Below, in pieces: positions 8,653 through 60,805 of a DNA stretch of 64,000 nucleotides. The notes beneath the pieces are model-generated. The model was given only the letters and a program-made list of their open reading frames with translations, had not been told where the DNA came from and searched no databases. A program made the translations under genes and the position numbers. Positions within the stretch are counted from its first letter, which is position 1. Every line of letters starts with the position of its first letter. This stretch comes from Rhizophagus irregularis (Eukaryota): the NCBI RefSeq assembly GCF_026210795.1, contig NC_089429.1, positions 3,224,001 through 3,288,000 of the forward strand. The letters run 5' to 3'.

Positions 8653-9928
8653 TTTGCTAGTATTTACGGCCAGACCACCCATTGCCTCTTATGAGACTAA
8701 TTTCGGGTCTGTGTCCTATCATCTTCAATGGGTAACCATTAAACCGAGTACTTAATTCCTCAGGTAACAGCACCACTACAGAAGACATCATCCATCAGGC
8801 CACATTTAAGGCTGATCTGAAGCTAGGAATACACTGCCTACTCATCCTATACCCATTGCATGATACTGGTACTCAATTTATTTTACGACCTTTAGAGAGC
8901 ACCTACAGGTAGCATTAACCATCTAGTACCCTTCCATAAGGACCCCGGATATCTAATATAAAGGTCATAATGGACTTTTGGCCAAAAACACCCCTTTTTG
9001 CTGAAACTCAAAAAATCGTTTTTTGTAAATATCTCAGCATCCAGTAATTCAATTTTAATGAACTTTTTTTTATTTTGTAGCCCTCATTTAGCTCTACAAT
9101 TTAAAAAAAAGTTCATCAAAATTGGACCACTGGATGCCGAGATATTTACAAAAAACGATTTTTTAACCCCTGAAAAATGGGCCAATCTGCCGAAAGTGTG
9201 ACTTATGACCTGTTTTGGAGATATCCGGGGTCCTCTTTCATACCACCATTTTAGGTACGAGGTTTCACTCAAAGGCTACTACAGTCCGTGATTACCTAGC
9301 ACTGATAGTACGGTTGTTTACCCCCAAGCGGTATACAGAGTGACCACTCCGATAATAAGCTTACACATCTGTTCAGGATCACCTCTTATGGTGGGTATCA
9401 ACTACCAGGGATCACCAACCAGGACCCAAAGAGTAGGGAATCGAACTCCATAACCATGCTACCTGTTCTGTGCACGAACACCTTGGTTGGCCTAAGACCT
9501 AACAGAAGGTCTAACTACCACTAAGATATTGCACCCTCAGCTTTACCATCTATGACGACCATCTAGCCATTACTGACCTCAAGCGGTATCGTAGAGTGAC
9601 CACCTGGACAGGAAGTCCCCCCTAAGGTATAGTAGTAACTAGTGACCTCAAAGACAGGACTGTGCACATGCCAATGGCCTCATAGGGTAACGGGCGTTGT
9701 GGTTGACATTGCTTAATTTTGGGCCAAATGTGCAGCCTAACCATACACACTAATTCACTATGATGCAGTCCAATTACGCTAATCTCTGTACCTTCACGCT
9801 ATTAGTTGTAGTGTCTGCAATAAAATTCGTTTAATTTCTGTGATTGGTGGAATTGAACCTGTGACCTCATACTCAGGCTTAATGAGGGTCTCAGTCACTT
9901 ACCACTGAAAAAGGGTGATCAACCCTTT
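8653..9928 (-). mobile_element. ~1-kb tRNA-headed SINE-like element, type-1 3' end, containing MITE 8939-9234
   Basis: Homologous to 30290-31266. B-box-like motifs on the minus strand near 9855 and 9440. The 3' end abuts AGTTTTATCCTTTTCC (8637-8652). Confidence 0.8.
8939..9234. mobile_element. MITE with AGGAC termini and 8-bp TSD (Merlin/MULE-like; superfamily uncertain)
   Basis: Perfect 16-bp TIR AGGACCCCGGATATCT; TSD CTTCCATA/CTTTCATA. The empty site is seen in the other SINE copies. Confidence 0.88.
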
Positions 9929-10409
9929 TGGTGCATCTTTCTACGATTATTGGATGCCAAGTTATTATGTGAAACGTAATATTTTTAGGTTTCGACAATT
10001 TTGACATGTTGAAACTATTTCGGCATTTCAGCATTTCGACAGATTTTAGTTTCAACATTTCGACAATAGCCTGTAAAATTTCAGCAGGCAACTTTATACT
10101 TAGCCTCATGAAAATTAAAATACAAGTAGATTTAACTTGCTGAACAACCTTACTTAAGCATAAAAGATAATTTGATATAATCAAAGTGGTGAGTAATAAA
10201 ATTATATTTTAAAGTAGTATTGTGATCCAGATGAATCCATCATCCGTTCAATTCAGTCCAAAAATAAATGGATGATCTGGATGAAAATCTGATTTAATCT
10301 AAATGGAAAAAGTTATATGTACAATCTGGATGATTTGGATCTAATCTGTTAAAATATAGAGATAATAGATAGCGGATTGGTCCAGATGAATGATCTGAAT
10401 GATCCAGAC

Positions 10410-10701
10410 AGGACCTTAGATATTACATATACAACTTAGTGGCAACTTTTTCGCAGATTGACCTAAATTTCACAAAAAAAAATCAGTTTTTTGCAATTAT
10501 CTCGGCATCCAGTAGTCCAATTTATGCGAACTTTTTTTGTTTTGTAGCTCTCATCGAGCTCTACAAAATAAAAAAAATCTGCATGAATCAGATCACTGGA
10601 TAACGAGATAATCACAAAAAACGGAAAATAAAAAAAGAGCAAATTGGGGTTTTTTTGGCAAAAAGTCAGTCGTGAGTTCTATAAAAGATGTCCAGAGTCC
10701 T
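10410..10701. mobile_element. AGGAC-family MITE (diverged)
   Basis: AGGACC...GAGTCCT ends and internal similarity to 8939-9234. TSD ATCCAGAC/ATCCAGAT appears once 10705-10959 is removed. Confidence 0.7.
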
Positions 10702-29552: not shown

Positions 29553-30289
29553 TATATATATATATTAATAAAATTAATATTTTAAAAAAAAATTATTTCA
29601 GTATACTCTATATTATATGTATCATGTAATACTAGATTACTAATTAGTAATTACTATGGTGCAGAACCTCTATAATAGGAACTTAAAAAATTTTAAATAA
29701 AATTTGATTTTATGGTTGAATTTTAATTTTATAAAAAAAATTAAACTCCATTTATTAAAAAGAATTGATTTATAAAATAAAAAAAGTCTCAATTTTTCAG
29801 ATTATGTAAGCATCACGTGATACATATATTAACCAATCAGAAATTAGGATTTTATAAGTTATATGATATAAAATTTATATAGTAATATATTTATTTATTG
29901 TATTTCATTATAAACTGATGAATCAGGTATACAATGATAAGATTTGTATTTTATTATATGTATTTTTTGACCAAATTAAAAATTAAAGTAATACAGTCAA
30001 CTCCCTCTATAGTCACTCCCGTTATAGTCACATTCTACTATATAGTCACACCAGTTGAATGTTCAAAACACTTTATTATTAAAATCTATCCTATATAGTC
30101 ACAATCTATCTATAGTCACTATCACACCTATCCTCAAAAATCTTATATTAAAAAGAACCGTTTATAATCACAGTTATATAAAGAATATATTAAATAACTT
30201 GGCATCTAATAATCGTACAAAGATGTATCATAACTTGTTAGAATCGTCTCACTGAGACGAATCGAATGGCGGTAGTTTTATCCTTTTCC

Positions 30290-38863: not shown

Positions 38864-39339
38864 GTCCAGATTACAACCAGGGCGACCACAACGATGACAA
38901 AGAGAGGAGACTTCGGTAGGTTCATGCCAAGTAAGGCCAGTAGATTTGAGAGCACAAGTGATCCCCATAGCCGATTCTTTAGTAGCAGCAGAGGAGAAGT
39001 GTACATAGGCATAAGGTTTGGCCCTATAAAAAATATGTATACGGTTTTTATACTGTATATACGTATTTTTGATACAGTTTGCATTTTTACATACGGCATA
39101 TCAGTATAATGTATACTGTTCGCAAAATGTGCTTAGTAAAAAATACAATAAAGTATACGGTAAACATACTGTGTGATACAGTATATTAAATTCATACGTC
39201 TATAACGTATATCATTTCTACTGTATATCAGTATTTTGTATACGGTTCACAAAAATATTGTAAATAAAGGATACGGTATACGTATTATTCTACAGTATAT
39301 TAAAATTCATACGTTTATAACGTATTTTCTACAGATATA

Positions 39340-41085: not shown

Positions 41086-41157
41086 ATAGAGTAAGTTTTT
41101 CTACACTTTAAAGCATCAAACAATACTAGTATCTGCTAATATGTACTACCCAAAAAC

Positions 41158-41400
41158 TAGAGGTAGGGTCCGGTCATCCGTTCAATCCGTTATTTCATCC
41201 GATCACGTGATGTAGATCACGGGTATGTAGATCATATCCTTTTAGGCGATACCCGTTCCACAAAAATATTTTTCTAAAAATCGATCTTACCGATTTTGGA
41301 AATTAGTGTAACATTCGACCTAAAAAAGGAAATGATCGACACAAATCACGTGATTTGACCGGATGACCGGATTTACGTTTTTCACCGGAGCCTACCTCTA
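41158..41400. mobile_element. hAT-type MITE
   Basis: TIR TAGAGGTAGG(G/C)TCCGGT; TSD CCAAAAAC. Confidence 0.9.
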
Positions 41401-41539
41401 CCAAAAACTCACTGATGTAAAATCACAATTATTAAAAAATTCACAAGAATTTTTGTTAATACTGTTTAATTTTTAAGTTCAAAGTCCGATTGATAATACT
41501 AAATTCAAAACTCAATTATAAATCATTTTTATAAATTAT

Positions 41540-43220
41540 AATTTAAAAATTAAGCAGTATTAAGGAAAATTCTCATGAATTTTTCTTAATACTACTTAAT
41601 ACTAATTTAACTAATTTAGTATTAAGGTTTTAATTTAAAAATTAAGCAGTATCAAGGAAAATTCTTGCGAATTTTTCTTAATACTGCTTAATTCTAATTT
41701 AACTAATTTAGTATTAAGGTTTTAATTTAAAAATTAAGCAGTATCAAGGAAAATTCTTGCGAATTTTTCTTAATACTGCTTAATTCTAATTTAACTAATT
41801 TAGTATTAAAGCTTTAATTTAAAAATTAAGCAGTATCAAGGAAAATTCTTGCGAATTTTTCTTAATACTGCTTATATCTGCCAATTCGTGAAATTAGCCA
41901 AACATAAAGATTTGCACATTTTAACAAGAATTATGTTTCACAAGCTTAAATTGTATGTGTTACATAATCAGATGATCTAAATCTATCAAAAAATAAAAAA
42001 AAATTTTTTAACGTTTATTCAAAAATAACAATGGCAACTACTTTCTTTTACAATCACTTTTCAATCACTTTTCAATCAGATTTTTGTTAGGTGACTTAGA
42101 AAAGTTTATAGGCATATATAGCAGGTTTTTTTTAATCAGTAAGTAAGAAAACAAATATTAATAATTTTTATTAATAAGAAAAATCTTTTTTCATTTATTT
42201 TTAACCTTATTTCCTTTTTTTTTTTAGTAAAAATATATACAAAATAAAAATGTGAGTTATGATTTAGAGTTTTTGAGATGTTTTTTTTTGTTTTTTACTA
42301 TACTAATTTTATTCTACTTGTTAATTACTTTTTAAAATTGATTTTATTAATTTATTCAATTTAAAACAGAAATGGCAAATAAAAACTTGTTAAGTAAAGT
42401 AAAAAGAGCCCAATAATACCTGTAAAGATCATCTTTTGGTAAGAATTATAATTTTAAAAATTTTTGTGTCAGAGTTTTATTCAATTAACAAAATCGTTAA
42501 TATCTCGGCGTACATGTATGCTAAACACATATATTTATATTCATATGAAAGCCCAGAATCTACTCTACCTGAACGAAAAAAGATTATTCAAATCGAATTA
42601 CTAGATGTGAAGATATTAGCGATCAAAGTCAAAGGTTAAAAATAAATATATTGAACGTAATTATTCAGCAACTTGTGATCCAATTCATGTGATATTTGGT
42701 TTATGGATAGCTCTTGATTACCTCTTTCTAATGAATATAAATTCATTCATCTAGCACACATACACGTTAAGTTATTCAATATTTTGTCATGACAATTATA
42801 TTTAAATTTTTTAATTTTAATGATATTATTAAAAAAATCAAAAAATAATATAATCAAATCAATTTTATTTATATCAGCGGTGTGAATCTATCATTTTCAT
42901 GTAAGTTGTATTAGCATTTTCTTAATAAAGTTAGTTTTTTGAATATAAAAACTTAATTCCATAAATCAGTCCATATGTTAATTCTAATTTAACTAATTTA
43001 GTAGTATTAAGGCTTTAATTTAAAAATTAAGCAGTATCAAGGAAAATTCTTGCGAATTTTTCTTAATACTGCTTAATTCTAATTTAACTAATTTAATATT
43101 AAAGCTTTAATTTAAAAATTAAGCAGTATCAAAGAAAATTCTCAAATTTTTCTTAATTCTAATTTAGCTAATTTAGTATTAAGGCTTTAATTTAAAAATT
43201 AAGAAAAATTTTTACAAATT
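41540..43220. repeat. 92-bp hairpin-containing tandem repeat, interrupted by an insert (41875-42977, TTA flanks)
   Basis: ATTAAGCAGTAT at 41549, 41641, 41733 and 41825; the array resumes at 42978. Confidence 0.85.
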
Positions 43221-46175
43221 TTCTTATTAAAAAAAAGAACTTTTAAATTACTAATTAAACTTTAAAAACAATCTGTATGATTTAAATTTTAAAAAAATAC
43301 TTCTGCTTTTTAATTTTCGCATTTCTACATTTAACCAATTAAAATTCAGCTGATCGCCGATCACATGCATTAATAACACGTTATTGTTTATTTTTTGTTT
43401 ATTTTTTCAAAAATATTCTTTTCTCTTCTTTTTTTTAGAAAAAAAAGACAATAAAAATGAATACCAAAATTATTTTAACATATAATAATAAAAATTAAAT
43501 AAAAAACTTATTTTGATAATATATAATATATATATTTGTACCAAACTACTAATTATACAAAAAGTGATATGCACGTATATCAATTAACAATTACTTTCAC
43601 TAATATCTCTCTGGAATTGTAATGGTGAATTTTAACAATATTAATTAAACAACTATATGTACACCGTTTTATGTTTTTATTTTTATATTAATATTATATG
43701 TTAACATATATTAATTATATTTTTTTTTTACTTTTATGTATTTTATTTAATTTTTTTAATATATTACTAACATTACTTCTATCGTTTTATTACTTTTTTA
43801 TATCTAACTAATATATTAATAATATTACTAACTTTTTATTATTTTTTTTTACTAACCTTTTATTATTCCTTTTTTATATTTAAAATAATGATAATATTAC
43901 TAATTAAATTTCTTTTTTTTTTGTTTATATTTTGCTAATATTATTTTTTTTACAAATAGTATATTATTTTATACTAGTTTTTTATTTATATTATTTATAA
44001 AAAAATATTTGTATATTTAATATTATTTAATAAAAATTTTATTGATTATAAATGCATTTTAAATTCTGTTTGCAAATATAAAATATACGATTTAATTGAA
44101 TAATATATACTATTTATCAGTACAAAATATGCAGTTTAAACTGGAAAAAAGTACTGTTTATCAGTATAAAATATACAGTTTATCCTGGAAAAGTATACTG
44201 TTCGCATTATAAAATATAAAACAATATACTGTTTATTGGTATAAAACATACGGTTTTTCTACTGTTTACAAGTATAAAACATACGGGTGAAACTGGAAAA
44301 ATATACTGTATGCAAACCGTATATATGATACGGTGTGCAGAATACCGAATATATACAGTATGTGAAAATACTGTAATTATACGGTAATAATACTATAAAT
44401 ATACTGTTCGCAAAATACGAAAATACAGTATACTAACCGTATATATATTTTTTATAGGGTGGGATTGTAAGAGTTGTAGGAGAAAGGGATGTTAACGCTT
44501 TTAGCGGAAACTTCTTCGGCAATTTCAGAAAGGTCAGCGGCAACAGAACCGCGTAGCGCCAGCAAGTGCAACATGAGCGCGTTTGACAGCGCGTTGATCA
44601 GGTGAATGAGAAGCAGGACAGACGCGTAAGCAGTATCCAGTACAAAGTACAGCCCACGTGTTTTCAAATTGATCCATGGAGGCGGCGGAGTCAAAAACTA
44701 TATACGCAGTGTGATAAAGTTTTGAAAGACGCGTGCGGCAGTGGGTAACAATACCATAACGGGAGAATGTGCCCCTTAATTGTGCATCGGTGACAAAGAG
44801 AGGGATGTCGGTAACTACCAGGGTACAAAGCTGTTCATCTGCCTTTTTAGCAGATGGGTCATGCTCGTGGAACTGTAGATCATGCAGGGAGGCGATAGGC
44901 GTAGCGATAGCTTTTTCCATATCAGGTTTGGAACGAAAGTAGACAACGATAAGTTTATTATCGCCTGATCCTTGAGTGGTAGCTTTACTACCATAAGAGG
45001 AAAAAGAGGAGAATTCTTGGTCGGTCGCGTCGCAAGCTTCGTGATTGGTTTTGAAGTGGGTCAAAATTCTTCAATAGTAGAGGGCGCAGCCGCAGCGCCC
45101 GCCGAAGGGGGAAGATTGTATAGCGGCAGTAGACGTGTCAGGAGACGCAGCGCGTTCGAGGTTCAGGAGGTGAAATTTCCACAGATTTTCCTTTATCTGC
45201 AGAGTTAGAAGGGGAATGTTGAGTCGTCATGGGAAGTACGAGTCGGGGAGGCGAAGGGGACGCGTTGGTGTCAACGAGAGGGGGAGACAAAGTTGAAGTA
45301 TTTTCCTGAGGAGCAGGAGGAGTCAAAATATTGTCTTGGTCCATAACAGGTTCAGAAGAAACCCGTGTGCGTTTTGCAAAGTTGTCGGTCAAAGGTTGCG
45401 AAGTAGGACCAGGAGTAGAAGCAGAAGAACCTTGACCTTGAACGTTGCCAGAAGGAGGACTCTGGGCAGGACGTTTTGGAGCAGAAGTACCAGAAGCTTT
45501 ATTATTTCGTCTGTTAGTCATAGCTAAAAGTAGAAGGGAGAACTAAAATATGTAATAGTTAGTAGTAACGCAAAGTAAATAATAAAAATACTTCAAAAAA
45601 ATCTTTTTTATTTTTTGTCGCAATATTGTCATGAAGGCAGTTTTATCCTTTTCCTTTGCTAATGTTTACGGCCAGACCACCCATTGCCTCTTATGAGACT
45701 AATCTCGGGTCATGTCCTATCATCTTCAATAGGCAACCATTATACCGAGACTTAATTCCTCAGGTAACAGCACCACTATAGAAGACATCCCCCATCGGGC
45801 CATTATAGGCTGATCGGAAGCTAGCGAGACACGCCGCCTACTTATCCTATACCCATTGCCCATTGCATACTGATACTCAATTTATTTAACGACCTTTAGA
45901 GAGCATCTACTTTCATGGAGGACTTTCGACAGGTAACATCAACCATCTAGTACCCTTCCATACCACCATTTTAGGTACTAAGTCTCACTCAAAGGCCACT
46001 ACAGCCCGCGATTACCTAGCACCGATAGTACAGTTGTTTACCCCAAGTGGTATACTTTGTAGTGACCACTCGGATAGAAGTAGCAGGCTTCTGTCCAGGA
46101 TCACCCCTTATGGTGGGTATCAACCACCAGGGATCACCAACCAGGACCCAAGAAGTGGGGAATCGAACCCCATAA

Positions 46176-49100
46176 GGGGCGTGCCAGAAATCAGCTGATT
46201 TCACTCAATTAGTAAGGCTAACCCTCCCACCCCCACCTGATCATTTAATCGATCATTTTGATTGGCTAAAACATTTTATATATAAGATTATAATTTCGCT
46301 TTACATCTGACTATCCGATCATTGGTTGAAAAATTTAATAATAGATATTGATTTTACATTGTTTAAAAAAAATTTTAATGATAAATAAAAAATCTTTACT
46401 ATCTATTTTCAAATAAAGTATAAATACATAAAAAAAAAAAAATAAATCATGCAAAGTTTTTTAAAAGCACCAAATTTTAGTAAAACGTTTTTTTATAAAC
46501 AACCACAAAATAAATACCAAGAATTTTGTAATGCATATGCATATTACAAGCAAGCAACGCTATGTGATCCTAAATTAAATCGTGAAAAATTATCCCAAGA
46601 ATGTGCAAGTGAATGGAAAGATGTTAAAAAACATGATAATGTTTTTATTGAAAGTAAAATTTGTGAATATTATGAAACTATACCTACCACTGTTCGTTCT
46701 CATCAACAAATTCTTATATCACGTAATGCAACGCCTAGTTCTCATCATACTCCTACACCTTCAACCTCAAAGCAATATAAAGAATATATTGACATTACAT
46801 CTTTACCAAAAAATGCCAAATCGCAATATGATGCAGCTGTAAAAATTAATTCAGCTATGAAAAAAATATCTGAGTGTGAACAAATGATGGAGATTGCATC
46901 AGACGATTCAATGAAAGTTATGTTATCATCTAAATTAATTGAAGAACAGAAAGTTGTATCAGAACAAAATGCACGGTTAAACAAATTAAAACGTCATGCT
47001 GATGCACAAGCAAAGCTAGCAGCAAAAAAGGACAAACTTTTTGAAGAGGGAATTGTAGAAAGATATGATACTCCAGGAAGGCCATCTGCAGCTATGAAAG
47101 ACCCAGAACTATGGGATAAAATACATGATAGTATTGAATTTGGAGCTGCTCATGCTAAACGTAGAAAAGTAGTTATTAAAGTAAGAACAATAAAACATTT
47201 ACGTGAAACTTTAGAAGAAAAATATAATACCTATTTATCTCGCCAATGCTTGTCAACTTATCTTCAACCTCGCCATCAGAACACTTTTGCTGCACGTCGT
47301 CATCATCATCCAACAAAAGTAGGCCTTGCCTCTGTAGCACGAACAGAAATGAAAACTCATATTGATGAGCATTATTGTCTAGCTTCTGTTAAAGCTGCAA
47401 GAACATTTGCTGAAGTTTTTGCAGATGAAACAATTATTATTTCTCAGGATGATAAGGCAAAAATTGGATTGGGAATACCTGCAGTTGGACGCACATTTAA
47501 AGCAATTCAAACAACAAATGAACCAGTAACTGTTGAGGATCATGATTTTCCGATGGGTTCAAAGATGAAATTAATACCATCTGTTTATCTAATAATTAAT
47601 CCAGCTGATTCAAGTGATACTCTTCGAACTGGGCAGCTCTCTATTTTCATTAGACCAGAATATTTTATTGGAACGTCATCTGCAACTCATATGGTTGATT
47701 TAAAAAATATTATTTCTAATGAAAAATTTTCTGCAACTTTAAAAAAAGAAAATGAAGTTAAACCAATTTTAATTCTTCTTGTTGATGGTGGGCCAGATGA
47801 AAATCCAAAGCATATGAAAAATATCATTCAATATGCTCACCTTTTTCATACCCTTGACTTAGATTATTTAACTATTCGCACTCATGCTCCAGGTCAAAGT
47901 GCATATAATCCAGTAGAACGAAGCATGGCATCTTTATCTGCAAAACTTGCTGGTATTACTTTACCGATAGGAGAATTTGGATCACATCTAAATAGTCAAG
48001 GAAATGTAGTGGATGAAGAATTAGCACGAAAAAATTTTGAATATTCAGGTAAAAGGCTTTGTGATATATGGGAAAGAGATGACATACATGGAAAACCTGT
48101 TACGGTTAAATATATCAATCAGGAAAAAAACCCGTTTGATAATGAGCCTCCAATATTATGGAACTGGATAGAACGTCATGCACAGATGTGTCGTTACTCA
48201 TTAGATATAAAAAAATGCAAAGACCGAGAATGTTGTTACGAGTACAGAGCGCCAGATGTAGCAACCCTTTTGGACGAAAATAATGGATTTCTTCCTTCAA
48301 TCATAAAAGGAAGAGATGGTCATTTCATTAACTCAATTCATGCTCTTGATTATTATGATAAGCTTAAAATTCAAGAGTATGATCGTTATTGTCCTTCAAT
48401 TTCACAGGAATTATATTAACGCTTATGTTGTAATATATGCGGCAAATATTTTCCAACTCTTAAATATATATCTGAATACAAACGAAATATACATTCTTTA
48501 AAACAAACTGCCAGGAAATCAAAACGAGTCCAGAAACAAAATAACGAAACAGAAATGGAATGTGTATTTATTGTAAATACAAACTTTAATGAAGCGGAAG
48601 ACATATTTCAAAGAGTTCCGTGGCAAGAAACAGTACAAGATTTTTGTGCAGTTCAGTCAGACGAAGAATAAATGGTATTGTTTTTAATGTTTATAAGATA
48701 TAATTTTTTTTTTATTTTCAGTGAATTTGTGATACATAATACAACATAAAACTGAATAAAGAAAAAATTTGCCGAACTATATAAAATGTAAATCAATTTG
48801 CCGCAGTGAAACTAATTAACTAACTAATTTCTGATTTCTGGCTATAGAGTTTCAGTCCGAAACTAAACTGTTCCTAAAAAAAAGAGAACGTAAGAAAGCC
48901 TTTTTTGGAAAAAATTAATCAACATTATCTCCCAACCTTCATTTACCTGTATTTTCGTACACCAACCTCCAACAACCCTACAAAAAGAAAAATAGAAATG
49001 TTAGTATATTCGTTTTTAAAGGAAACAACGAAAAAACTCCTCTCCCGGTCTCTCCTTACCAAAATCCAGAAGTTCAGTGACTCCGGTCATGCTGTTCGTC

Positions 49101-49627
49101 CGGAATCCCTATAAAAAAGAATGAAAAAATAAATTAAATTTCCTAAAAAAAACAAAATTATAAAATAACGAAAAAAACCTCTCTACCTCAATTCAAAAGT
49201 CCAGTCACGTTTCTTGTCTGGAAATCCTACAAAAAAAGAAAAATATATATTAGTTACGTAGTTGCATTCTTTTTAAAAAAAAAATCAAAAACGAAAAACC
49301 TCTCCTTCGGACTTTCCTTTCTCAATTCCAGAAGTCCAGTCCTATTTTTCATTCGGAAACCCTACAAAAAAGAAAAATAAAATAAATGTTAAATTTATTA
49401 AAAAAAAAATAAAAAATATATCGAAAAAACTTTTTACCTCAATTTCAAAAAGTCTGGCCTGTTTTTCGTCCGGAAACCTTACAAAAAAGAACCTAATTTC
49501 GGCAGTCGACCTTAAATTATTATATGTAAGAAATTAACCAATAAAAAGCATGTCACGTGATTAAAGACCTGATCCGCAGACTGAACCCCCCACCCCCTAT
49601 CAAATCAGCTGATTTCTGGCACGCCCC
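46176..49627 (+). mobile_element. Zator DNA transposon
   Basis: Perfect 26-bp TIR GGGGCGTGCCAGAAATCAGCTGATTT; 3-bp TSD TAA. Confidence 0.9.
46449..48671 (+). CDS. Zator (TP36-like) transposase: 656-aa ORF plus 83 in-frame codons after one premature stop
   Basis: SQDDKAK, DHDF, VDGGPDENP, APGQSAYNPVERSMA. After TAA 48417-48419 the frame continues RLCCNICGKYFPTLK...H to a stop at 48671. Confidence 0.85.
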
Positions 49628-50107
49628 TAACCATGCTACCTGTTCTGTGCACGAACACCTTGGTTGGTCTAAGACCTAACAGAAGGTCAAACTACCATTA
49701 AGACATTGCACCCTCAGCTTTACCATCTAGGACGACCATCTAGCCATTACTGACCCCAAGTGGTATCGTGGAGTGACCACCTAAACAGGAAGTCCCCCCA
49801 AGGTATAGTAGTAACCTCAAGGACAGGACTGCGCACATACCAATGGCCTCATAGGGAACGTTAGAAGGACACCATGACCCTTAGTTGAAATGTGCAGCCT
49901 AACCGTACACACTAATTCACCATGATGCAGTCCAACTACACTAATCCCTGTACCTTCACGCTATTGGTTGTAGCGTCCGCAGTAAAATTCTTTTTATTTC
50001 CGTGGTCATGGGAATCGAATCTGCGACCTCACCATACTCAGGCTTAATAAGGGTCTCAGTGATTAACCACCGAGATAGGGTGACCAACTCTAGTTTTATC
50101 CTTTTCC

Positions 50108-50260
50108 TTTGCTAATGTTTACGTCCGACCACCATTCACTCTTATGAGACTAATCTTGGGTCTGTGTCCTATCATCTTCAATGGGCAACCATTATACCGA
50201 GTACTTAATTTTTCAGGTAACAGCACCACTATAGAAGACATCCCCCATCGGGCCATTATA
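50108..50260 (-). mobile_element. 5'-truncated SINE-like unit (153 bp), type-1 3' end
   Basis: Matches 45655-~45807 and lies between two copies of the 16-bp repeat. Confidence 0.85.
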
Positions 50261-50762
50261 AGTTTTATCCTTTTCCGATTACTGGCTGACGAGTTATTCA
50301 ACAAAATGTTAAACATCGGCATTATAATATTTTTTGATTTACGTTTACTGCGCCATTTAACATTTTGCTAGATTTCTCGGTACCTAGTGATTGTAAAAAG
50401 ACGATTTATAGCTCGTTGGAATCGCCTCATCGAGACAAATCGAATGGTGGTAAGTTCATCTTTCTGTGATCTGTGATCAATATTGATGGAGTTATTACTT
50501 AAAAACCATTTAATATTTTTTAATTTCGGAAATTAATTTAGTGATTGGATTTCGACGTATTTTATACCATTAGAACCGTCTCATCAAGACGAATCGAATG
50601 GCGGTAAGATCATCTCTCTACGATTAATATTGGTGAAGTTACGATACAATAAAGTTTTAAGTATAATTTTGGCTAAAATTATGTTAATTTTTGGCCGGAA
50701 TTATGATATGCAAATATAAGAAATTTTTTATATAGTCACATCTCTTTATAATCACCAAATAT

Positions 50763-51231
50763 TGATCCTGGGTAACACCTACAAGCTTACTGTCCAGGTG
50801 GTCACTACAAAGTATACCACTTGGGGATTACAACTGTACTATCGGTGGTGGGTAATCGCGGGCTGTAGTGGCGCTTTGAGTGAGACCTGTTACCTAATAT
50901 GGTGGTATGGAAGGGGTCTAGATGTTTGAAGGTTATCGACGAAAGTCCTTCGTGACGTAGTAGTGGTGAGGGGTTATAATAGTAGCCGTTACAGTATCGT
51001 ACAACAGATTAAAGGACGAGTAGGGTGGTGTTCGGCAGATTCGAAGGCCTTCGGGTCCCTGGGATAAGTCCTTGCGTTTCGGTTGTGGTGTTGAATTGTC
51101 CCTGTTAAAAAGGTGGCGGGGATGGTTACATCATGGCTTAGTGAGGATGATGCAATGAACGACCTACCTCCATAGCCTTCAATAGAGGGTGCGGAAAGTA
51201 GTGGCCACTAAACTTACAAAACACTTGTAAA
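50763..51231 (+). mobile_element. 5'-truncated SINE-like unit, type-2 3' end
   Basis: Collinear with ~59812-60805 minus the MITE; ends CACTTGTAAA. Confidence 0.85.
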
Positions 51232-51555
51232 ATAATCACCAAATATGAGGATCATTGCAACTCTTTCCTGAATTTTTGAAAATACTAATAAAATTAATTT
51301 TTGAAATTTTCGTTCGAAAATTTCTAAGTGCTCGTTCATAATACTAATATTTCCACAGTTGCTTTCCTCTTTACTGAGCTTTATACTATGACTACACCTC
51401 CAGCTCCTTTTGTTATTAACCCAGATATTCTGCCGCCACCGCGTCCTGTTATCTCTGCTTCCCTTCCCTTCCAGGACCGACCCCTTTACCTTTCATTTCC
51501 CACCTAATACCGCCGGCGTACCAAATAAACGTTCGCGTACTGTCTCGAGGACGCT

Positions 51556-53520
51556 ATGAATGTTGATATAACTTCGCCCTCTGCTCCTGCTCCCAACCTT
51601 ATTTCTACCGTTCCTTCTGGTCTTCCTGTCAACAAAGTCCATGTGATTACACCTCCTCAAAATACTACCACTCCTGTTGAAACTGTTGATGCTTCTATCC
51701 ATGCTCCCTCTAACACCAGTAATAAAGGCAAAGCTGTCGTCTTTGATATCCCAGAACGACGACCATCTCCTGATGGGAATGCTGCTGCTATCAAATCCGC
51801 ACCTTCTCGTTATCATGCTGTGGCCTACTTACACGACACGCCTGACGCGTTCAAAGCTAAATTCACCACCAACTGCTCCATGTGTGACGAAGTGGATTGT
51901 TCGCTCTCCTGTTATTCTTCTTATGGTGCTCGCGCACGATGTGAAGGATCAGCTGATAACAAGAAAATCCTTATCTTCTTCAATAATCATGATGATTATA
52001 CCGATTGTATCACCTCCCCACGTGCCGATCTCCTTGATTTGGCCTTCAGTCATTATTCTCCTGCAGACGCCAAGCTCAGTGATGAAATGAAGTCTTTGTT
52101 CGTCACTGATATCCCACTTTTCCTAACCGAGACTCAAGTCCGTCAGGCATTTTCCCGATATGGCACTGTAATCAAGTGCAAACTTACTCCTAGGAAATAT
52201 TACTATAATGGACATATCCAGTTTTCCTCCGCAGATGCAGTTACCCAATTTAATGATATTTGGACGATCATTTGCCTTGGTAATTCTTTACGTGTCTGTC
52301 TGGCATCTTTTTCGAAATCCCAACGCGATAGCCGCAGAGAACATGTTGCTATCCTCGCCGGCATCCCAAAGAATATTAAAGAAGCTGACCTGTTGGAAAT
52401 TGCTACTCAAGTTAACGCTAAGGCCCTTAACGTTCCTCTATCTATCAGTTCCTACAAGCCTAAACCCTATGTATATTTGAATTTCTCTTCATTTGAATCT
52501 CTTGAAGCTGCCAAAGAAATGACCGTGGCTTTCCGCGGCAAAGGATTAACATGGCACCCTCCCAATGAAGCACAAACTTTATGCCAGGTTTGTGGGCGTC
52601 CTGGTTGTTCTCCCTCTGTATGTAATCCTCATACCACACGGAAAGTGGATGATCGCCTTAATAAACTTTATTCTCGCTTCAATGCTGGCTCTAGACGTGG
52701 TCATCAGGATTCACGCCAATCACGTAAAAATTCCAATTCCCGTTCAAGATCGCGATCCAATTCTAGATCCCGCAATAATAATTCCTCTTCATCCCGCTCC
52801 AACAACAATAACAATAATACTAACACTTCTCGTCCCAATACTTCTCGAAGTAACAACCGGACCAACAATAATACTAATAATCACAGGAACAATGAAAATT
52901 CTTCCGGTTCTACTCAACCTCCATATAAACCTCATTCTGTCAGTTATACACCACCTACTTCTCCATCTGACAATCCTGCCCATACACTTCCTCAACATAT
53001 TATTGATGATTTAAAGGTGCAGATCAAAGAGATCGTTAACACCCTACATACTCTAGAGGAAACTGTCTCTTGGATGAATGATACTATCACGTCCCATGAG
53101 TATAGGCTATCTGAGCTTGAATCAATGATGAATTATGACAACCCTGGTGACTCTGATTTGTATCTGCCTCGTGATGATCATGAAAATCAAAATCATTCTT
53201 ATGATAATGGATGGGATGATGCCCCACCCCATGACACGAATTCTGGATTCAATCTTCCTCTCCATACTTCCCCTTCTCTCATGGATACTTCTCCTGATGC
53301 TTCTTTCTCAGCTCTGGATCCTAACTCCGTCTTATCAAGAAGACATGTCCCGTTGCCTAACTCCCGACCTACTATTATTGCTCCCGATGCTAATACTTCC
53401 CGTTTGCAATTGGAGATTTCTAATGTCACCAATACACAAAAGAATCTTTCTGCCCAACTTGGTTCGATTATGGAAAAATTGGACTCCTTCTCTCCCTCAA
53501 AAACCCTCCCCTTCCAATGA
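51556..53520 (+). CDS. LINE B ORF1 protein (RRM domains, CX2CX4CX4C knuckle, SR/N-rich region, coiled coil)
   Basis: 654-aa ORF with LFVTDIP..AFSRYGTV, YVYLNF and CQVCGRPGCSPSVC. The true start may be ATG 51388 with a frameshift. Confidence 0.85.
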   Translation: MNVDITSPSAPAPNLISTVPSGLPVNKVHVITPPQNTTTPVETVDASIHAPSNTSNKGKAVVFDIPERRPSPDGNAAAIKSAPSRYHAVAYLHDTPDAFKAKFTTNCSMCDEVDCSLSCYSSYGARARCEGSADNKKILIFFNNHDDYTDCITSPRADLLDLAFSHYSPADAKLSDEMKSLFVTDIPLFLTETQVRQAFSRYGTVIKCKLTPRKYYYNGHIQFSSADAVTQFNDIWTIICLGNSLRVCLASFSKSQRDSRREHVAILAGIPKNIKEADLLEIATQVNAKALNVPLSISSYKPKPYVYLNFSSFESLEAAKEMTVAFRGKGLTWHPPNEAQTLCQVCGRPGCSPSVCNPHTTRKVDDRLNKLYSRFNAGSRRGHQDSRQSRKNSNSRSRSRSNSRSRNNNSSSSRSNNNNNNTNTSRPNTSRSNNRTNNNTNNHRNNENSSGSTQPPYKPHSVSYTPPTSPSDNPAHTLPQHIIDDLKVQIKEIVNTLHTLEETVSWMNDTITSHEYRLSELESMMNYDNPGDSDLYLPRDDHENQNHSYDNGWDDAPPHDTNSGFNLPLHTSPSLMDTSPDASFSALDPNSVLSRRHVPLPNSRPTIIAPDANTSRLQLEISNVTNTQKNLSAQLGSIMEKLDSFSPSKTLPFQ

Positions 53521-56500
53521 TTGAACACCAATTTATATCGGGTGGTTCACAGGGATCTCACCCCCCTGATAGTGCGCTACTTAATATTAATAGTCCTAAT
53601 AACTCTCCTTCTTCCTTTTCCCCTCTTATTAATTTTGGACAAATCAATGTTAATGGTCTGTGCTCCCCTGTTTGTCAGTTGCATTTGTTAAATTATTTTC
53701 TCCATTCTTCTTTTGGCATTTTATCTTTAAATGATACTCGTCTTACTTCTTCTAGTGCTAAATTTATTTATCAAAATGAACATGCCCAACATAATTTTAA
53801 GTCCTATTGGGCTCCTTTCCCTTCTAATTCACGACCTCATGATGGTGTTGGTCTTTTACTTCGCCATCCCTTACATAAACATGTTCAGAAAATTGATCCT
53901 TGGAAAGGTCGCCTTTTAAAATTAGATCTTTTTTTTCATCAAACAAAAATTTCTATCATTTCTGTTTATATTCCTCCCTATCATTCTGTTCATTATAAAG
54001 AACGTGATGCTATTTTTGCCCAACTTAATTTATGGCTTGATAAAGCCCGCTCTAATAACTATCACGTAGTCATCCTTGGTGATTTTAATGCAGATGAAAT
54101 TTCACATTCATATCTCCCTCAACATTATTTGAAAATTTTACGATCACTTTCTTCTCGATATTTTACGGATCATCAATCTTATATTTCTTCAATTTCAGGT
54201 CCTAGTCCTACCTTTTATCATCAGAATGGTTCTTCTAGACTTGATTATATTTGGTCATCCCCTGGCTTTCTTGCTCCCAGTCTTTTCTCTCATGTTGAAT
54301 CTAGTCCTAAGTTGAATGATAACCAATTTACTGACCACCGTGTACTCATAACGGCCTTCGACTTTAATTCTTGTTTCGCTACTTTAGCCAAAGCTAGACT
54401 AAAACAGAAAAGCGAACAACGCACCATTTTTCTCTATAAGAATTTAAAAGAAGACACGTGGGACACATTTTCTAATGAAGTAAACTCACGTCTTGAGTTG
54501 TACTTGGTCACACACCATCCTTCTGTATCTTCACTTTCAGCTCTTTCATTAGACAAACTTTGGTACGCTCTTAAACGCTCTATTCTTGGTGGTGCCATTG
54601 ATTCTCTTCCATTTCAACATGTATCCAATACTTATCACCATAAATATTCTCTGGAACTTACGATGCTTATTGCTATCAACAAATTCTTGGATAGATTATT
54701 GTTTAAATTGACCACATCTCAGACTACTCGCCCCGCTCAAATTTCACAAATGATCAATTCTTTACCTACACAATTAACTCTTTTGAAATTCCTTTTAATA
54801 GATTATACTATACCTACTTATAGTACAACACCACTTCCTGCTTTTGTCAAATTTTTGCGTTCACAAAAAGCTTTGGTCTCTGCTTATCTTTCCACGCAAT
54901 TTCATCAACATCGTGTGGATTCCATTGAATTTTATACTGCTCTTAGAGATGAACATTTCTCTACGTCGCCGGGTTCTTTTATCTCTTAAGCTCTGTCAGT
55001 GGAACATCGCTCTATCGTTCTTGATAGAGTTTTGGTTGTAATTGACTCCAAACCTACTTTACTTACTGAACCTTCAGACATCAAACAAGCTGCTATCAAA
55101 CACTTCCAATCGGTTGTTACTCCTCCATTGGTTCAGCATTCTTCTATTGATAAATTTCCTCCACGCTGGCAAAGAGCATATACTCCTATTTCTGACATCG
55201 ACTCGTCTTTATACACCTCGGTCATGTCTCCTATTTTGGATGATGAATGGATAAATATTCGCAAATCTATGCCTAATAACAAAGCCTCTGGCCCCTCTAA
55301 AATTTCTTATGAAATGCTCAAACATTTAACTGGAGAAGCTTTCAATTTGTCTCTTGTTTTAGCCAATGCCTGCCTTATTCATGGTGATATTCCTGCAGAT
55401 TGGCGTGAAGCGCTTATTTATCCCATTCCGAAGCCTCATGAATTTGACGCTCAATTAAAGAATACACGACCTATCACTTTATTAGAAACTGTTTGGAAAT
55501 GTGTGGTCAAGATCGTTACAACTCGTCTTTCAAAAATTCTAGCTGATAACCAAATACTTCAGGGTGGTAATTTTGCTGGATTACCAGGTGGATCTACTGA
55601 CATTCCTATCAAAATGCTTGACGCAATTATTCATCAACGCCGCTTTGATAAAACTGATGACCAAGAGTTATGGATTGTTTCCCAAGACATTTCTAAGGCC
55701 TTTGACTCGATTGATTTAAATATGCTCAAGTTGGCTTTAATCCGTTTACATATCCCACCCTTGTTGATAAAATTTATTATCAATCTTTTCACAAGACGCA
55801 ATAACAAAATTATTACTCATTATGGTGATACTTCCGGATATAGAGTTAGAATCGGTATTGATCAGGGTGAAATTATTTCCCCGTTATTATGGGTGATTTA
55901 TTTGGATCCTTTACTTACAACGCTTAATCGAGAAGCTTGTAATCCTTTTATTTTGAAATCCTCTGCTTTATTGGATTATTCCCCGATTGAATATGAACAA
56001 CATAACCTTCCTGTTTCACATATCACATTTATGGATGACTCTACTTTGATTGCTTCATCTAAACGAGGAATTGAAGATCGCCTTTCCATTACAGCTGAAT
56101 TTTATACTTTAAATAATACTCAAGCTAATTCAGCTAAATATATCCTTCTTTCTTCTGAACAATTCTCTCAAACTATAGTGTTTGATCTTTTCCCATCTCC
56201 TTTAATCCAAACTTGTACTCTTACTTTAAAAGCTTTAGCTTTATCCAAGTCTTTTCGCTTTTTAGGTGTCTGGTTTTGGTTTTCAGCTTCTTCTCGCTTT
56301 GTTCATGATCAAAGTATTTCCATGGTCAAAGACATGGCTGCTTTACTCAGTCCTAAGAAACTTTTGGCACAACATGTGGCTTATCTTTATAACGTTGTCT
56401 TACTTCCAAGGCTAGAATTTCGCCTACAAACCACATTATTTGCTGAATCCATTATTAATCGTATGGTTTCTCCAATGCTTTCTCTTATTCGACAAAAGGC

Positions 56501-58990
56501 TGGTTTAGCCTCAGTCACTCCTCTTTCCGCGCTTTTCACATTGTTGCCGTTCTCTATTCAACAAGCATTTGGTCGATTTCTATCATCTCATGTAGCTTCA
56601 TGGCAAAAAATTTTTTCTCACCCTTTACATATAAAACCTTTGCCAATTATATGATTACTTATCTCCAAAGCTTCCTAGATTGTGATGCCTGTTCTTCTAC
56701 TATTGACTTGGAACCATGGTCCCATACATTTTCCTTGCGAACACATTCTTTGTTTAATTCTTTATTATTCTCTTCTCGTTTGAATATCACGTGGTCTTTA
56801 TTGTTCCGACCTCTGAGGAAAGATCTACGTCTGGCAATTCCACTCTGGTCGATTTTACCAAAAGACTTATTCACTTCCATGAAAAATGTTCAGAAAAAAT
56901 TTTGTACTCGTTTTCTTGCCCAATTGGTTACTCCGTGTGGCTCTCGGCTTCTTCCATGGAAAGATTTACGCTTTCTTAAATGAGTTTCGAACAAAGGATC
57001 TGTGCCTGCTTGGTTTACTTATTTATTTAATTTAGTTGTTATTTCTAATTCTTCTTCTTTTTTTCTTTTACCGCAATTTAGAATACCTAATTCCTATACT
57101 GTAGCTTCTATCTGTTCTATAGATATTAGTCGAAATTATTTGTTCAATCCACAATGGGCTATTTTTTTTAATCGCGATACTAACTCTTTCCTTGTTGGCC
57201 GTGTGATCATTACCTATCCTGCTCCGCGAAATGAAGCTCTTATTTCACATTGGATTGCGTCATCTATCGATGACTTATTATCAGAATTCACTGCATGCCA
57301 AGGTTGTGCCTCTGCTATTCTGCGATCCTCTACTTCCAAAACATTGTTTAAACGATGTCCCTCTGAAAAGTGCTTCTCTTATATGCCTTTATCAAGTCTT
57401 ATCCGTTACCTTACGAAGCCTCATACTTATATACATGTGGATACTCGTTCGGTCTCACTTTCCGCTTCGTTAGGCTATGCCAAATCTCTTTTACTATTTT
57501 ATCTTTTTGCTCCAGTTCGGTTACCTCCTATGCTTAACCAAGTGTCTAGGATTTCTGATATCCAACTTCCTTCTTCGGTGTCTACCCTGTATATTGATGG
57601 ATCCTTCCTTCCTCCTTCTAGTCATCCGACACCTTCGATGGCTTATGCATGGACTGCTATCGATTCTGATGGTTTTATTCTTGAATCTCATTATAATACC
57701 ATTCCTTCACTCTTTCCCTCTGCATTGCGTTCCGAAATTTTTGCCTTATTGCATGGATTGGACTCCCTGCCTCGGTATTCCAAGATCACTGTCGCTACTG
57801 ATTGTGCTCAATTAATTTCCTTATGGACTACGTATGTGGATGCTCCGTTCATTCCTAAAATGCTCAAAGAATTCAACCACCTTCTATGGTCTTCGGCACG
57901 AGCTATTATTTCACATAAGAATCTGGAAGTTACTTTAATCAAGGTTCCTGCTCACGCTGACGATTCTTTGAATAACCATGTTGATGACTTAGCGAAAGCT
58001 GCTCATACAGACTCATGTCTTTCCTTTATTTCGCCTGCATTTTTAGCTCCTTGTATTTTACAATTTAATTCTTTACCTGGGGATATGAATATCCGGAAAT
58101 TCATTGGAGATATTTTTGACGCCAAGAGTCTTTTGACTCTTGCTTTATTACCAAGATTCAATCTTAATTCCTCTTTTTCGGATATTGATTGGGCTTGTAC
58201 CAAATTTTGTTTTAATAATAAACAATTACAATCCTCCCATCGAAATGGCCGGTCTGAATTTTGTGCTTTCCGTATCAAGATTTTATTGGATATGCTTCTG
58301 ACACTCACAACTTTTCAAAAACAAAAGCCTCATATCTATGATCCGAGTTGGCTCTATCCTCAGTGCAACTCCTCTCCTGAGACTTTAGACCACTTATGGA
58401 CTTGTCCTTATATTTTACCTGAATTTAGTCCTTTTAATACTTTTAAAACACTTCTGCTGGACCTTAAAACCGTTTGTCTTGGAAAATTTCTCTCTGCAAC
58501 TCCTTTGAAATCTTTACCGGACTATTTCGCTGTGAAATTTATGGCTATGGATTGTTGGGACTGTAACCCTCCTTCAAATTCTTGTCTGCGATTTGCACGT
58601 GGACTTATACCGATGTCTCTTACTAGTTTTCTTGGAACATATTTTTCATCATCCACTATTTGTTCTATTTTTGATACACCTTTACATGAATTTCATTTTG
58701 ATCTCTATGTACAAATTTGGTTGTGCCGTTCCGTTTTCTTTCACCATTGGGAATTAGCTCAAGGCATTACCAATAAAATGAAATCGTCCGCTATTGGACT
58801 TTCTCCTATTATTCGTCCTTTCTCAAATGTTTCTCCTTATTCTTTGACACCTTCCTTGGCGACAGCTTCCTTGGATTTCTGGGTTTCTTGGGTTTCCTCT
58901 TACATAATCCATGGGGGATCTTGGATTTCGCATTTGGATTTTTGGCACCGCTTAACAGTTCAGCCTCTACTTAGGATTTCTTTTTGGTAA
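53517..58990 (+). pseudogene. LINE B ORF2 (APE - RT - RNase H - CCHC) with two stops and one frameshift
   Basis: ORFs 53517-54989, 54999-56654, 56600-56983 and 57002-58990. Motifs LGDFN, SRLDYIW, GIDQGEIISP, FMDD, LYIDGS, KVPAH. The start overlaps the ORF1 stop (ATGA). Confidence 0.93.
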
Positions 58991-59270
58991 CAGATTGGAT
59001 CTTCGGATATGCTGGATAGTTGACTAACATTGGCCTTCGGGTAAAGTTGGGGTATGCGTTTCTGTAATAGTTTAGTTTTTCTTTACTTAATTTTATTTTG
59101 TTTAGATTTCTTTACTTGTATGAATCGTGAAGCTAGTTCTTTTTATTTTTTATGTTTAATTTTCTATATTTTATTTGTAATATTGTTCGATTTGAGTTTT
59201 GTACTTTTCGTTTAAAAATTTATAATAAAAGATAAAGTCATAAGACTGTTTGCTCATAATCACCAAATAT

Positions 59271-60805
59271 ATGAGTTGGTCACCCTATCTTAGTGGTTAG
59301 TCACTGAGACCCTCATTAAGCCTGAGTATGGTGAGGTCGCAGGTTCGATTTCCATGACCACGGAAATAAAAAGAATTTTACTGCGGACGCTATAACCAAT
59401 AGCGTGAAGGTACAGGGATTAGTGTAGTTGAACTGCATCGTGATGAATTAGTGTGTACGGTTAGGCCGCACATTTCAACTAAGGGTCATGGTGTCCTTTT
59501 AACGTTCCCTGCGGCCATTCGGCATGTGCGCAGTCCCCTGTCCTTGAGGTCACTACTATACCTTAGGGGGGACTTCCTGTCTGTGTGGTCACTCTATGAT
59601 ACCGCTTGGGGTCAGTAATGGCTAGATGGTCGTCCTAAATGGTAAAGCTGAGGGTGCAATGTCTTAATGGTAGTTTGACCTTCTGTTAGGTCATAGACCA
59701 CCCAAAGTGTTCGTGTACAGACAGATAGCTTGGTGGCGATTGGCTCAATTCCTCTCCGACGCCTTGCATGGCGTATTCCCTTGGCAGGGTTGATACCCAC
59801 CAATTAGGATGATGATCCCGTAACACCTACAAGCTTACTGTCCAGGTGGTCACTACAAAGTACACAGTGAAATTCGATAAACCGGATCTATCGGTTCCAC
59901 TAAAAATATCCGGTTTATCGGGATATCCGGTTTAGCGAAAAAATTTCGATATATTGAAAATCTATTATATTGAATTTTTAAAAAATTTTCATGCTAATAA
60001 AACTAATATACACTATAATTTGATTTTTTTCATCTAGTTTTAAGTTATAGGAGGTCATGAAAATGAATATAAAATATTTTAATTGAATATATAAGTAATA
60101 TTAACTTCAGCCGGAATTAAGATTTTTATAATTCCGGCCAAATTTAAGATTTACCGCATCACGTTACTTAAATTTTATTGGTTCCGAGCTACGTGATCCG
60201 GTTTATCGAATCATTTTTACTATAGCTGGTTAGAAAATTGATCCGTTATAGCGAATATCGAGCTTTTACTAGTAAACTCCGGTATATCGAGCCTATTTTA
60301 ATATACGTGATTTGGTTCCAGCAAAAAAGTCCGGTTTAGGCCCAAATCCGGTTTATCGAATATCCGGTTTATCGAATTTCACTGTGTATACCACTTGGGG
60401 ATTACAACTGTACTATCGGTGGTGGGTAATCGCGGGCTGTAGTGGCCTTTGAGTGAGACCTGTTACCTAATATGGTGGTATGGAAGGGGTCTAGATGTTT
60501 GAAGGTTATCTGACGAAAGTCCTCCGTGACAGTAGTAGTGGTGAGGGGTTTATAATAGTAGCCGATTACAGTATCGTACAACGGATTAAAGGACGAGTAG
60601 GGTGGTGTTCTTCCGATTCAAAGGCCTTCGGGTCCCTGGGGTATGCCTGATTGATGGACGTGCTGGATAAGTTGTCTTGGTTAAAAGGTGGCCTTGATGA
60701 CATCTGGTGGTTCAATGATGGTGAGGATACGAACGACCTACCTCCATAACCTTCAATAGAAGGTGCGGAAAGTAGTGGCCACTAAACATACAATACACTT
60801 GTAAA
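59271..60805 (+). mobile_element. Full-length SINE-like element, type-2 3' end, containing MITE 59863-60386
   Basis: Head GGTCACCCTATCTTAGTGGTTAGTCACTGAGA...GGTTCGATTTCCATGACC. The 5' ~450 nt is close to type 1; the 3' ~270 nt differs. Confidence 0.85.
59863..60386. mobile_element. pogo-like MITE
   Basis: Perfect TIR CACAGTGAAATTCGATAAACCGGAT; TA TSD; empty site at ~50812. Confidence 0.92.

Follow-up and report, generated by a model that had tools for sequence, protein, structure and literature searches.

In Rhizophagus irregularis, one MITE family has two fixed sites at which units of two LINE subfamilies and of a ~1-kb SINE-like element with two 3′ types have piled up, and our analysis suggests that the protein of each LINE probably picks its site and probably mobilises one of the two SINE types. 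In the best reading, every LINE subfamily comes with a target and a SINE partner of its own, much as described for the crocodilian Tx1-Mar LINEs and SINEU in Mariner-N4 (PMC4494074). LINE clade, SINE 3′ type and site co-vary, with the LINE clade tracking the target as well as the SINE type does, and a non-coding RNA guide is not needed for the observed association. Positions below are those of the window, the whole 64,000-nucleotide stretch that was analysed.

Two target sites in one host MITE

The host MITE (29992..60861, minus strand) measures 825 nt with the arrays left out, and consists of pieces 60821-60861, 50277-50747 and 29992-30273 plus one copy per target. It is flanked by TA, has the ends TACAGTCAACTC, and holds the 15-mer site at MITE position 42 and the 16-mer site at MITE position 528. 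Arrays B (minus strand) and C (plus strand) lie back to back inside one and the same MITE copy, their units bordered by identical duplications, of 16 nt at site B and of 15 nt at site C. The 16-mer (minus strand) stands at the 5′ limit of array B (50261..50276), between SINE B1 and SINE B2 (50092..50107), between SINE B2 and the 5′ end of LINE-B (45639..45654), between the LINE-B tail and the head of SINE B4 (31267..31282) and at the 3′ limit (30274..30289). The 15-mer ATAATCACCAAATAT (plus strand) stands at the 5′ limit of array C (50748..50762), between SINE C1 and LINE-C (51232..51246), between the LINE-C tail and the head of SINE C3 (59256..59270) and at the 3′ limit (60806..60820). Exact copies of the 16-mer occur at six places in the window (chance expectation 7e-5 per window) and of the 15-mer at four (1e-3 per window). 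All eight window units and several outside junctions adjoin the target repeat, the denominator being these junctions rather than the whole genome; the rule of Kojima 2015 for a sequence-specific LINE or SINE, as given in the section used here, is that more than 20% of flanks are the same target repeat (PMC4494074).

At a third locus, A, a 16-mer copy (GGAAAAGGATAAAACT; 8637..8652, minus strand) lies 3′ of a SINE; behind it come ~85 nt of a palindrome arm that matches locus B at 98%, giving 101 nt of flank common to A and B that are 98% alike. The 5′ flank of SINE A holds an in-register homologue identical at 9/16 positions (9929..9944, minus strand) in place of an exact 16-mer, and these mismatched 5′ and 3′ copies are a point against plain target duplication. 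With B and C in a single MITE copy and a flank common to A and B, the window represents two targets and at most three arrays, which corrects the three loci counted in the first-pass annotation.

A metagenome contig (L001) carries a near-identical MITE over its full length, with the 15-mer site unoccupied and with an outer flank and a SINE head that differ from those of the window copy. Its SINE has a type-1-like middle and sits behind a 14/16 variant of the 16-mer.

SINE 3′ type follows the target

Type 1 comprises, all on the minus strand, SINE B4 (30290..31266; full length, 977 nt), SINE B2 (45655..50091; full length, cut in two by a DDE transposon), SINE B1 (50108..50260; 5′-truncated to 153 nt) and SINE A (8653..9928; full length, ~980 nt). 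Type 2 comprises, on the plus strand, SINE C1 (50763..51231; 5′-truncated to 469 nt) and SINE C3 (59271..60805; full length, ~1010 nt). The DDE transposon occupies about 46176-49623 (ORF 46446-48419), and 45655-46175 and 49624-50091 are the halves of the single SINE B2; SINE C3 carries a MITE insertion at about 59866-60385, and SINE A is interrupted by a palindromic MITE at 8939-9234.

All four type-1 ends (8653, 30290, 45655, 50108) adjoin the 16-mer, their 3′ modules being 86-94% alike, and both type-2 ends, 83% alike in their 3′ modules, adjoin the 15-mer, a pairing that has one array and one indirect gene model as its basis. In the final ~300 columns of the alignment the two types are 45-49% alike; they have the 5′ ~480 columns in common (76-95% alike). 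The first-pass annotation had described one 3′ end type at the 16-mer, another at the 15-mer and shared 5′ halves, all of which these comparisons bear out. Units of one array differ from each other by 5-14%, and the type-2 module differs internally among C1, C3 and the type-2 SINE of a second metagenome locus (L002), whose contig stops about 18 nt short of the SINE 3′ end.

The SINEs are non-coding (no ORF ≥120 aa) and repeated, show duplications of the LINE kind, and have base-precise 3′ junctions with no poly(A) or repeat tail. A B-box-like motif reading GGTTCGATT(T)CC and, weakly, an A-box-like one can be seen in them. Searches with ARAGORN and Rfam returned no tRNA or other family at threshold, and a Fungi_SRP match in the Rfam search (E 4.3) was treated as chance. 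No alignment of a SINE tail with a LINE tail was better than shuffles (0/12); between LINE 3′ UTR and SINE body 3/12 alignments had p<0.05 uncorrected, all of type 2, and we do not rely on them. A predicted C-AUAA-G hairpin occurs in both LINE tails and in type-1 SINEs, with AAUA in type 2; this small AUAA-loop hairpin is all that type 1 has in common with the LINE tails. Folding of nine ends gave z-scores never past -1.8, so the hairpins are suggestions only. Being common to both LINE tails, the hairpin leaves the choice of one LINE partner by a SINE type unexplained, which counts against partnership between particular LINEs and SINE types, as does the chance-level similarity of their tails.

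LINE endonuclease clades track the site

LINE-B (31283..45638, minus strand) and LINE-C (51247..59255, plus strand) each encode an ORF1 with RRM and an ORF2 with APE, RT and RNase H, and Pfam RRM_1, Exo_endo_phos, RVT_1 and RNase_H are found in both and in intact homologues. With these domains, target duplication, 5′ truncation and no LTRs, both are APE-type non-LTR retrotransposons. The ORFs of LINE-B are disrupted by stops and frameshifts, and two stretches of the element, about 37768-38862 and 39022-44459, are nested TIR insertions; the ORFs of LINE-C also contain stops and frameshifts. For RT, the top solved-structure match is human L1 ORF2p (E 7.5e-21), followed by R2 (6e-18); zf-RVT matched weakly in 1/5 homologues.

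The LINE 3′ UTRs are identical at 216/252 positions (86%), compared with 52-76% in 300-column windows along ORF2. The earlier observation that UTRs and tails are alike at different sites thus holds for the UTRs but not for the final tail bases, which differ between the two LINEs (...TTTGCACA vs ...TTTGCTC) and track the target too. The endonucleases are 68% identical, and a tree built from both window copies and 39 of the 79 homologues places LINE-B and LINE-C in separate clades with support 100/100. Intact natural copies occur in both clades (for example P0051 in B and P0002 in C), and there is a third endonuclease subclade, the P0033 group. Fifty diagnostic columns came from about the first 190 columns, most homologues being cut at the first TDH. 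The loop preceding the TDH motif is clade-specific in 10/10 B-clade and 8/8 readable C-clade sequences, one further C-clade sequence being unreadable. By its position in the sequence, this loop probably corresponds to the specificity hairpin, whose role is known from TRAS1/R1Bm in the part of that work used here (PMC1919474).

Junctions in public contigs

One stretch holding the type-1 SINE, the LINE-B tail and the MITE arm was compared with public contigs, with the type-2 end lying outside it; 1,880-10,950 contigs matched per run, and 24 of 906 loose ends were listed. Among the matches listed, the LINE-B tail and 16-mer lie directly on the MITE arm with no SINE (loose ends at 31266), in at least 13 contigs for X2, at least 7 for X12 and at least 5 for X5, where the consensus is poor; a LINE tail runs into the start of the 15-mer in at least 3 contigs for X12 and at least 2 for X14. 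LINEs are therefore found on the sites without any SINE, and the earlier statement that a SINE is the 3′-most unit holds at all three places within the window and fails in public contigs. The matches listed (24 of 906) include no loose end at the 3′ terminus of type 1, a result that says nothing on off-target copies.

In other assemblies the 16-mer stands in front of at least eight different 5′-truncation points and on both sides of a LINE tail fragment of 40 nt; of eight truncation joints, one (30407) lies inside the type-1-specific module and the rest are not typable. One X12 contig runs from the MITE arm through a 16-mer-like site, seven terminal bases and 195 unrelated letters into the SINE body, which we read as another 3′ module occupying a site of this kind. 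Both 5′-truncated window units are the 5′-most of their array (counted by hand, 1 in 21). Template jumping in a single event was set aside given that, among the matches listed, truncated SINEs also lie downstream of LINE tails and SINE tails in public contigs, for which sequential insertion is enough.

Spurious flank-derived exons occur in 4/224 public gene models, and all four fit the pairing of LINE clade and site. One C-clade model (P0014) has a LINE tail, 15-mer and SINE head at a different locus, another (P0016) has a type-2 SINE exon upstream, and two B-like models (P0157, P0212) have a host MITE exon immediately upstream of the 16-mer site. A metagenome scan gave two loci (L001 and L002), and scans of viral contigs and prokaryote genomes gave none in either.

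What sets the site

The first-pass annotation had proposed that the 3′ module of the non-coding RNA picks the site while the LINE just supplies enzymes. In bridge-RNA-like RNA-guided targeting, a segment of a non-coding RNA is complementary to the target. The association is complete in the window (4/4 and 2/2), and the 3′ modules differ while the upstream modules are common to both types, as a guide or adaptor would have it. We nonetheless consider such a module highly improbable: when the last 300 nt of seven SINEs were compared with both empty targets (60 shuffles each), the longest word matching either target was 7-8 nt (p 0.53-1.0) and 14/14 SINE-target pairs stood at shuffle level. Moreover, LINE tails occupy the target without a SINE, the X12 contig has another 3′ module at a 16-mer-like site, and the type-2 module is itself variable. 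SINE type does track the target, but so does the endonuclease clade, a correlation that the annotation itself had named as evidence against its proposal; its alternative, in which each LINE has its own APE specificity and its own SINE partner, fits best, the two endonuclease clades following the site.

The association could instead reflect shared descent, with MITE transposition, segmental duplication or recombination having multiplied a few founder insertions. B and C in one MITE copy and the flank common to A and B point that way, as does the head of SINE A, just 76-80% like the other SINE heads. This account is quite unlikely and largely refuted, because the 5′-truncation points behind the 16-mer are independent; the flanked LINE tail fragment, the separate MITE copy of L001 and the divergence between units of one array also argue against it.

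A more serious rival holds that the transcript extends into the target copy and the MITE, and that a nick of loose specificity leads to insertion only at places where the 3′ extension pairs with the nicked strand, an account we regard as unlikely. The precise, tailless 3′ junctions are consistent with such read-through, and the SINE ends lack a terminator, the first T5 run coming 136, 223 and 166 nt past SINEs B4, A and C3, the 3′-most units. LINE 3′ UTRs that are 86% alike serve two different sites, and in R2Ol and R1Bm annealing improves efficiency or accuracy, according to the portions of those studies cited here (PMC7265360, PMC6530143). Site identity would then be inherited via the RNA, with the divergence of SINE type and LINE clade as its consequence, a view we hold to be doubtful given that the endonuclease clades differ and track the site. 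At locus A, where a donor-like 3′ side faces a merely homologous, in-register 5′ side, pairing might even have overwritten a diverged target, making site choice homology-programmed and self-perpetuating without a guide module; that too seems rather improbable to us, and locus A may also be a recombinant of two insertions. Inner array units would run into the next element rather than the MITE, and Pol III transcription of the SINEs is putative, the tRNA searches being negative. The cited systems, in the parts used, credit annealing with help rather than site selection, whereas an endonuclease swap does select (PMC1919474).

Under LINE-encoded site choice, two nicks spaced by 15-16 nt during target-primed reverse transcription would duplicate the target, so each insertion would recreate the site and later copies would land beside earlier ones. 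SINE type would track the target because it tracks the LINE partner. Read-through RNA with a target copy would probably play an accessory part, aiding priming and holding lineages to their site.

Relation to known systems

As far as the sections of Kojima 2015 used here go, crocodilian Tx1-Mar LINEs and SINEU target Mariner-N4_AMi, a non-autonomous Mariner-type element with two unrelated hot spots used in opposite orientations (PMC4494074). Spot preference differs by LINE family and spot use by SINE family, SINEs are often tandem, SINEU-1 lacks a LINE-shared tail, and different SINEs are interpreted there as mobilised by different LINE families. The present system differs in belonging to a fungus, in base-exact 15/16-nt duplications between all units, in an ORF2 with RNase H, and in a ~1-kb element that has B-box-like motifs rather than U1/U2 heads and whose types differ in a ~300-nt 3′ module. 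Xenopus Tx1L, an APE-type LINE, likewise has a non-autonomous DNA transposon, Tx1D, as its specific target; SINE types and a second site are not described in that part of the same paper.

[quoted passage not shown] Their duplication is 12 bp long, their motif lies upstream of the element, and both partners carry a common 5′ signature; in the fungal system SINE and LINE 5′ ends are unrelated and the target is a MITE. R1Bm, R2Ol and SART1 are site-specific LINEs in which, on the evidence of the parts cited, downstream target RNA anneals to nicked DNA and gives better insertion (PMC7265360, PMC6530143, PMC1919474), and exchanging the endonucleases of TRAS1 and SART1 shifted the insertion site (PMC1919474); their targets are rDNA or telomeres, and read-through in the fungal system is putative.

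We found no site-specific LINEs or SINEs described in the literature for arbuscular mycorrhizal fungi, whose transposable-element libraries may already contain these families. The portions of two such surveys used here name SINE and L1-Tx1 families and give no target data; one of them, PMC11075540, records L1-Tx1 families for Rhizophagus irregularis. The crocodilian pattern of two hot spots in one MITE recurs in a fungus, a sign that non-autonomous transposons may have been adopted convergently as safe places to land. The sister LINE clades, with 68% endonuclease identity, nearly the same 3′ UTR, different exact targets and many public copies, offer a clean natural test of protein against read-through RNA, and whether protein or RNA chooses the site bears on retrotransposon-based gene insertion.

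Results

The window, repeat-rich and with a GC content of ~32%, contains six exact copies of the 16-mer GGAAAAGGATAAAACT on the minus strand and four of the 15-mer ATAATCACCAAATAT on the plus strand, where chance would give 7e-5 and 1e-3, respectively. Array B runs 16-mer, SINE (153 nt), 16-mer, full SINE split by a DDE transposon, 16-mer, LINE-B, 16-mer, full SINE, 16-mer; array C runs 15-mer, SINE (469 nt), 15-mer, LINE-C, 15-mer, full SINE, 15-mer; and at locus A a single full SINE has the 16-mer at its 3' end but lacks an exact copy at its 5' end. In each LINE, stops and frameshifts interrupt the coding regions for the RRM, APE, RT and RNase H domains. The insertion in SINE B2 (46176–49623) is a 3.4-kb TIR transposon flanked by a short duplication, whose 657-aa ORF weakly matches DDE_Tnp_ISAZ013, below the cut-off. 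A third, distant LINE (11900–17100; 25% and 34% identical to LINE-C in ORF1 and endonuclease) lies in fragments and breaks off at a TIR insertion, where the 3' part has been lost.

As the first-pass annotation had noticed, the four SINEs at the 16-mer share one 3' module (type 1, 86–94% alike), the two at the 15-mer share another (type 2, 83% alike), and a 5' part of ~480 alignment columns is common to both types, which are 45–49% alike over the 3' module. The LINE 3' UTRs (31283–31569 and 58990–59255) are indeed very similar, 86% alike compared with 52–76% in ORF2 windows; the adjoining C-terminal part of ORF2 is 45% identical in protein and 52–60% in DNA, a pattern that would reflect either recent 3'-end exchange or strong constraint. 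The ~1-kb SINE body (30290–31266; metagenome contig L002) is modular, with a GTGGTCACT...ATACCACTTGGGG unit present twice and a second B-box-like motif in mid-body; L002 has an extra module and joins a type-1-like middle to a type-2 end. An Rfam search of this body matched no family. For a segment common to both types (60434–60500), the Fungi_SRP model scored very weakly (12.5 bits, E 4.3); the GCTGTAGTGGC motif in this segment resembles the start of the fungal SRP Alu domain.

Joined without arrays B and C, their flanks form an 825-nt MITE with terminal inverted repeats flanked by TA. Its two insertion sites, which are used in opposite orientations, lie at positions 42 (15-mer) and 528 (16-mer). 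Another copy, with a different outer flank, occurs in a metagenome contig (L001). There the 15-mer is present once, with nothing inserted, and a 14/16 variant of the 16-mer is followed by a SINE with a type-1-like middle. The empty site and the reconstruction together indicate that the spacers are target-site duplications, and, since both arrays lie in one reconstructed MITE, they are not independent loci. A second copy of the MITE right end (2904–3105, 98%) adjoins ORFs at 3169–6213, which have no Pfam matches and may encode a transposase. An imperfect palindrome of ~100–150 nt (core ACCACCATTCGATTCGTCT; 1035–2003, 50376–50629, 62464–62991) recurs in several unrelated MITEs, and the 16-mer corresponds to a variant form of this palindrome's left arm. 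At loose end 31286, the consensus from sequencing run X12 continues from a C-type LINE tail into bases 1–8 of the 15-mer and then departs from it; the C target may accordingly be the short subterminal repeat motif and not the full 15-mer.

All 79 homologues of the LINE-C endonuclease region bear the name Rhizophagus irregularis, with identities reaching 94%, which points to this species or a near relative as the source of the window; LINE-B and LINE-C are 68% identical in the endonuclease. In a tree of the 39 of 79 that cover enough of the domain, the two fall into separate clades (support 100/100), and the loop preceding TDH is clade-specific. A third subclade (P0033, P0035, P0037, P0038, P0048) lies beside the B clade (100/99). 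Outside junctions were taken from public contigs of four runs in three studies, as the consensus of the best-supported rows among the matches listed. Among these matches, a LINE-B tail and 16-mer are directly preceded by a MITE arm in 13 contigs of X2, 7 of X12 and 5 of X5 (poor consensus), and LINE tails with LINE-C-like ends lead into the start of the 15-mer in 3 contigs of X12 and 2 of X14. A LINE can thus be the 3'-most unit: the observation that a SINE takes this place holds in the window but is not general, since outside it LINE tails lie directly on the target among the matches listed. Flank-derived spurious exons occur in 4 of 224 public gene models, and all four agree with the clade–site pairing: of the two in the C clade, P0014 runs at its end through the tail and 15-mer into a SINE head and P0016 has a type-2 SINE at its start, and the two B-like models, P0157 and P0212 (the latter, at 69%, just under the 70% class cut), begin in host-MITE sequence immediately upstream of the 16-mer site. 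Target therefore does track APE phylogeny, which the first-pass annotation had set against a role for SINE type, but not independently of SINE type; clades, junctions and gene models leave SINE type, LINE clade and site confounded three ways.

Discussion

We consider it fairly probable that the site is set by the LINE protein, with SINEs as partners. An endonuclease swap between TRAS1 and SART1 shifted the site (PMC1919474). Counting against this reading, both LINE tails carry the same AUAA-loop hairpin as type-1 SINEs (AAUA in type 2; folding z-scores are weak), leaving no visible basis for partner choice. That duplication accounts for the association is improbable: among the matches listed in public contigs, the 16-mer precedes at least eight different 5'-truncation points (one of eight typable, as type 1), some of which lie after LINE or SINE tails, and it also flanks a 40-nt LINE tail. 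To judge from these sequences, the 16-mer site has been targeted repeatedly, and duplication alone would not explain the pattern.

The suggestion that the 3' module of the SINE ncRNA picks the site found no support, and we regard such a guide as very unlikely. Between the last 300 nt of seven SINEs and both empty targets, the longest common words were 7–8 nt, at shuffle level in 14/14 pairs. The modules also vary: type 2 differs internally among three copies, and one X12 contig, among the matches listed, has at a 16-mer-like site a 3' module of 195 nt that deviates from the others. Because this contig matches SINE B4 from 30484, whereas type-2 SINEs match B4 only from 30536, the module is probably a third type. 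Site choice by read-through RNA, whose annealing aids insertion of R1Bm and R2Ol (PMC7265360, PMC6530143), seems unlikely, though less so. The elements end on a fixed base without poly(A), and 136–223 nt separate the 3'-most SINEs from the first T5 run beyond them; a putative Pol III transcript would hence include the target. At locus A, an exact 16-mer and 101 nt, 98% like locus B, follow the SINE, and the 5' flank holds an in-register homologue matching at 9/16 positions; RNA-templated overwriting would account for this mismatch, as would a recombination event joining two insertions.

Trypanosome ingi-clade elements are described as tandems of autonomous and non-autonomous copies with one duplication between them (PMC3820030). 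In crocodilians, Kojima (2015) found Tx1-Mar LINEs and SINEU elements inserted into a single Mariner MITE, at two unrelated hot spots and in opposite orientations. The families differ in which spot they use, and the author attributes the different SINEs to mobilisation by different LINE families (PMC4494074). The present system is alike in its two sites within one MITE, their opposite orientations and its LINE and SINE occupants. A literature search, mostly outside subscription journals and without Repbase, found no report of it; SINE and LINE families appear in two AMF surveys, whose available portions give no targets for them (PMC11075540, PMC11952901). These LINE/SINE pairs targeting a MITE at two sites represent a real and apparently undescribed fungal case of a known kind.
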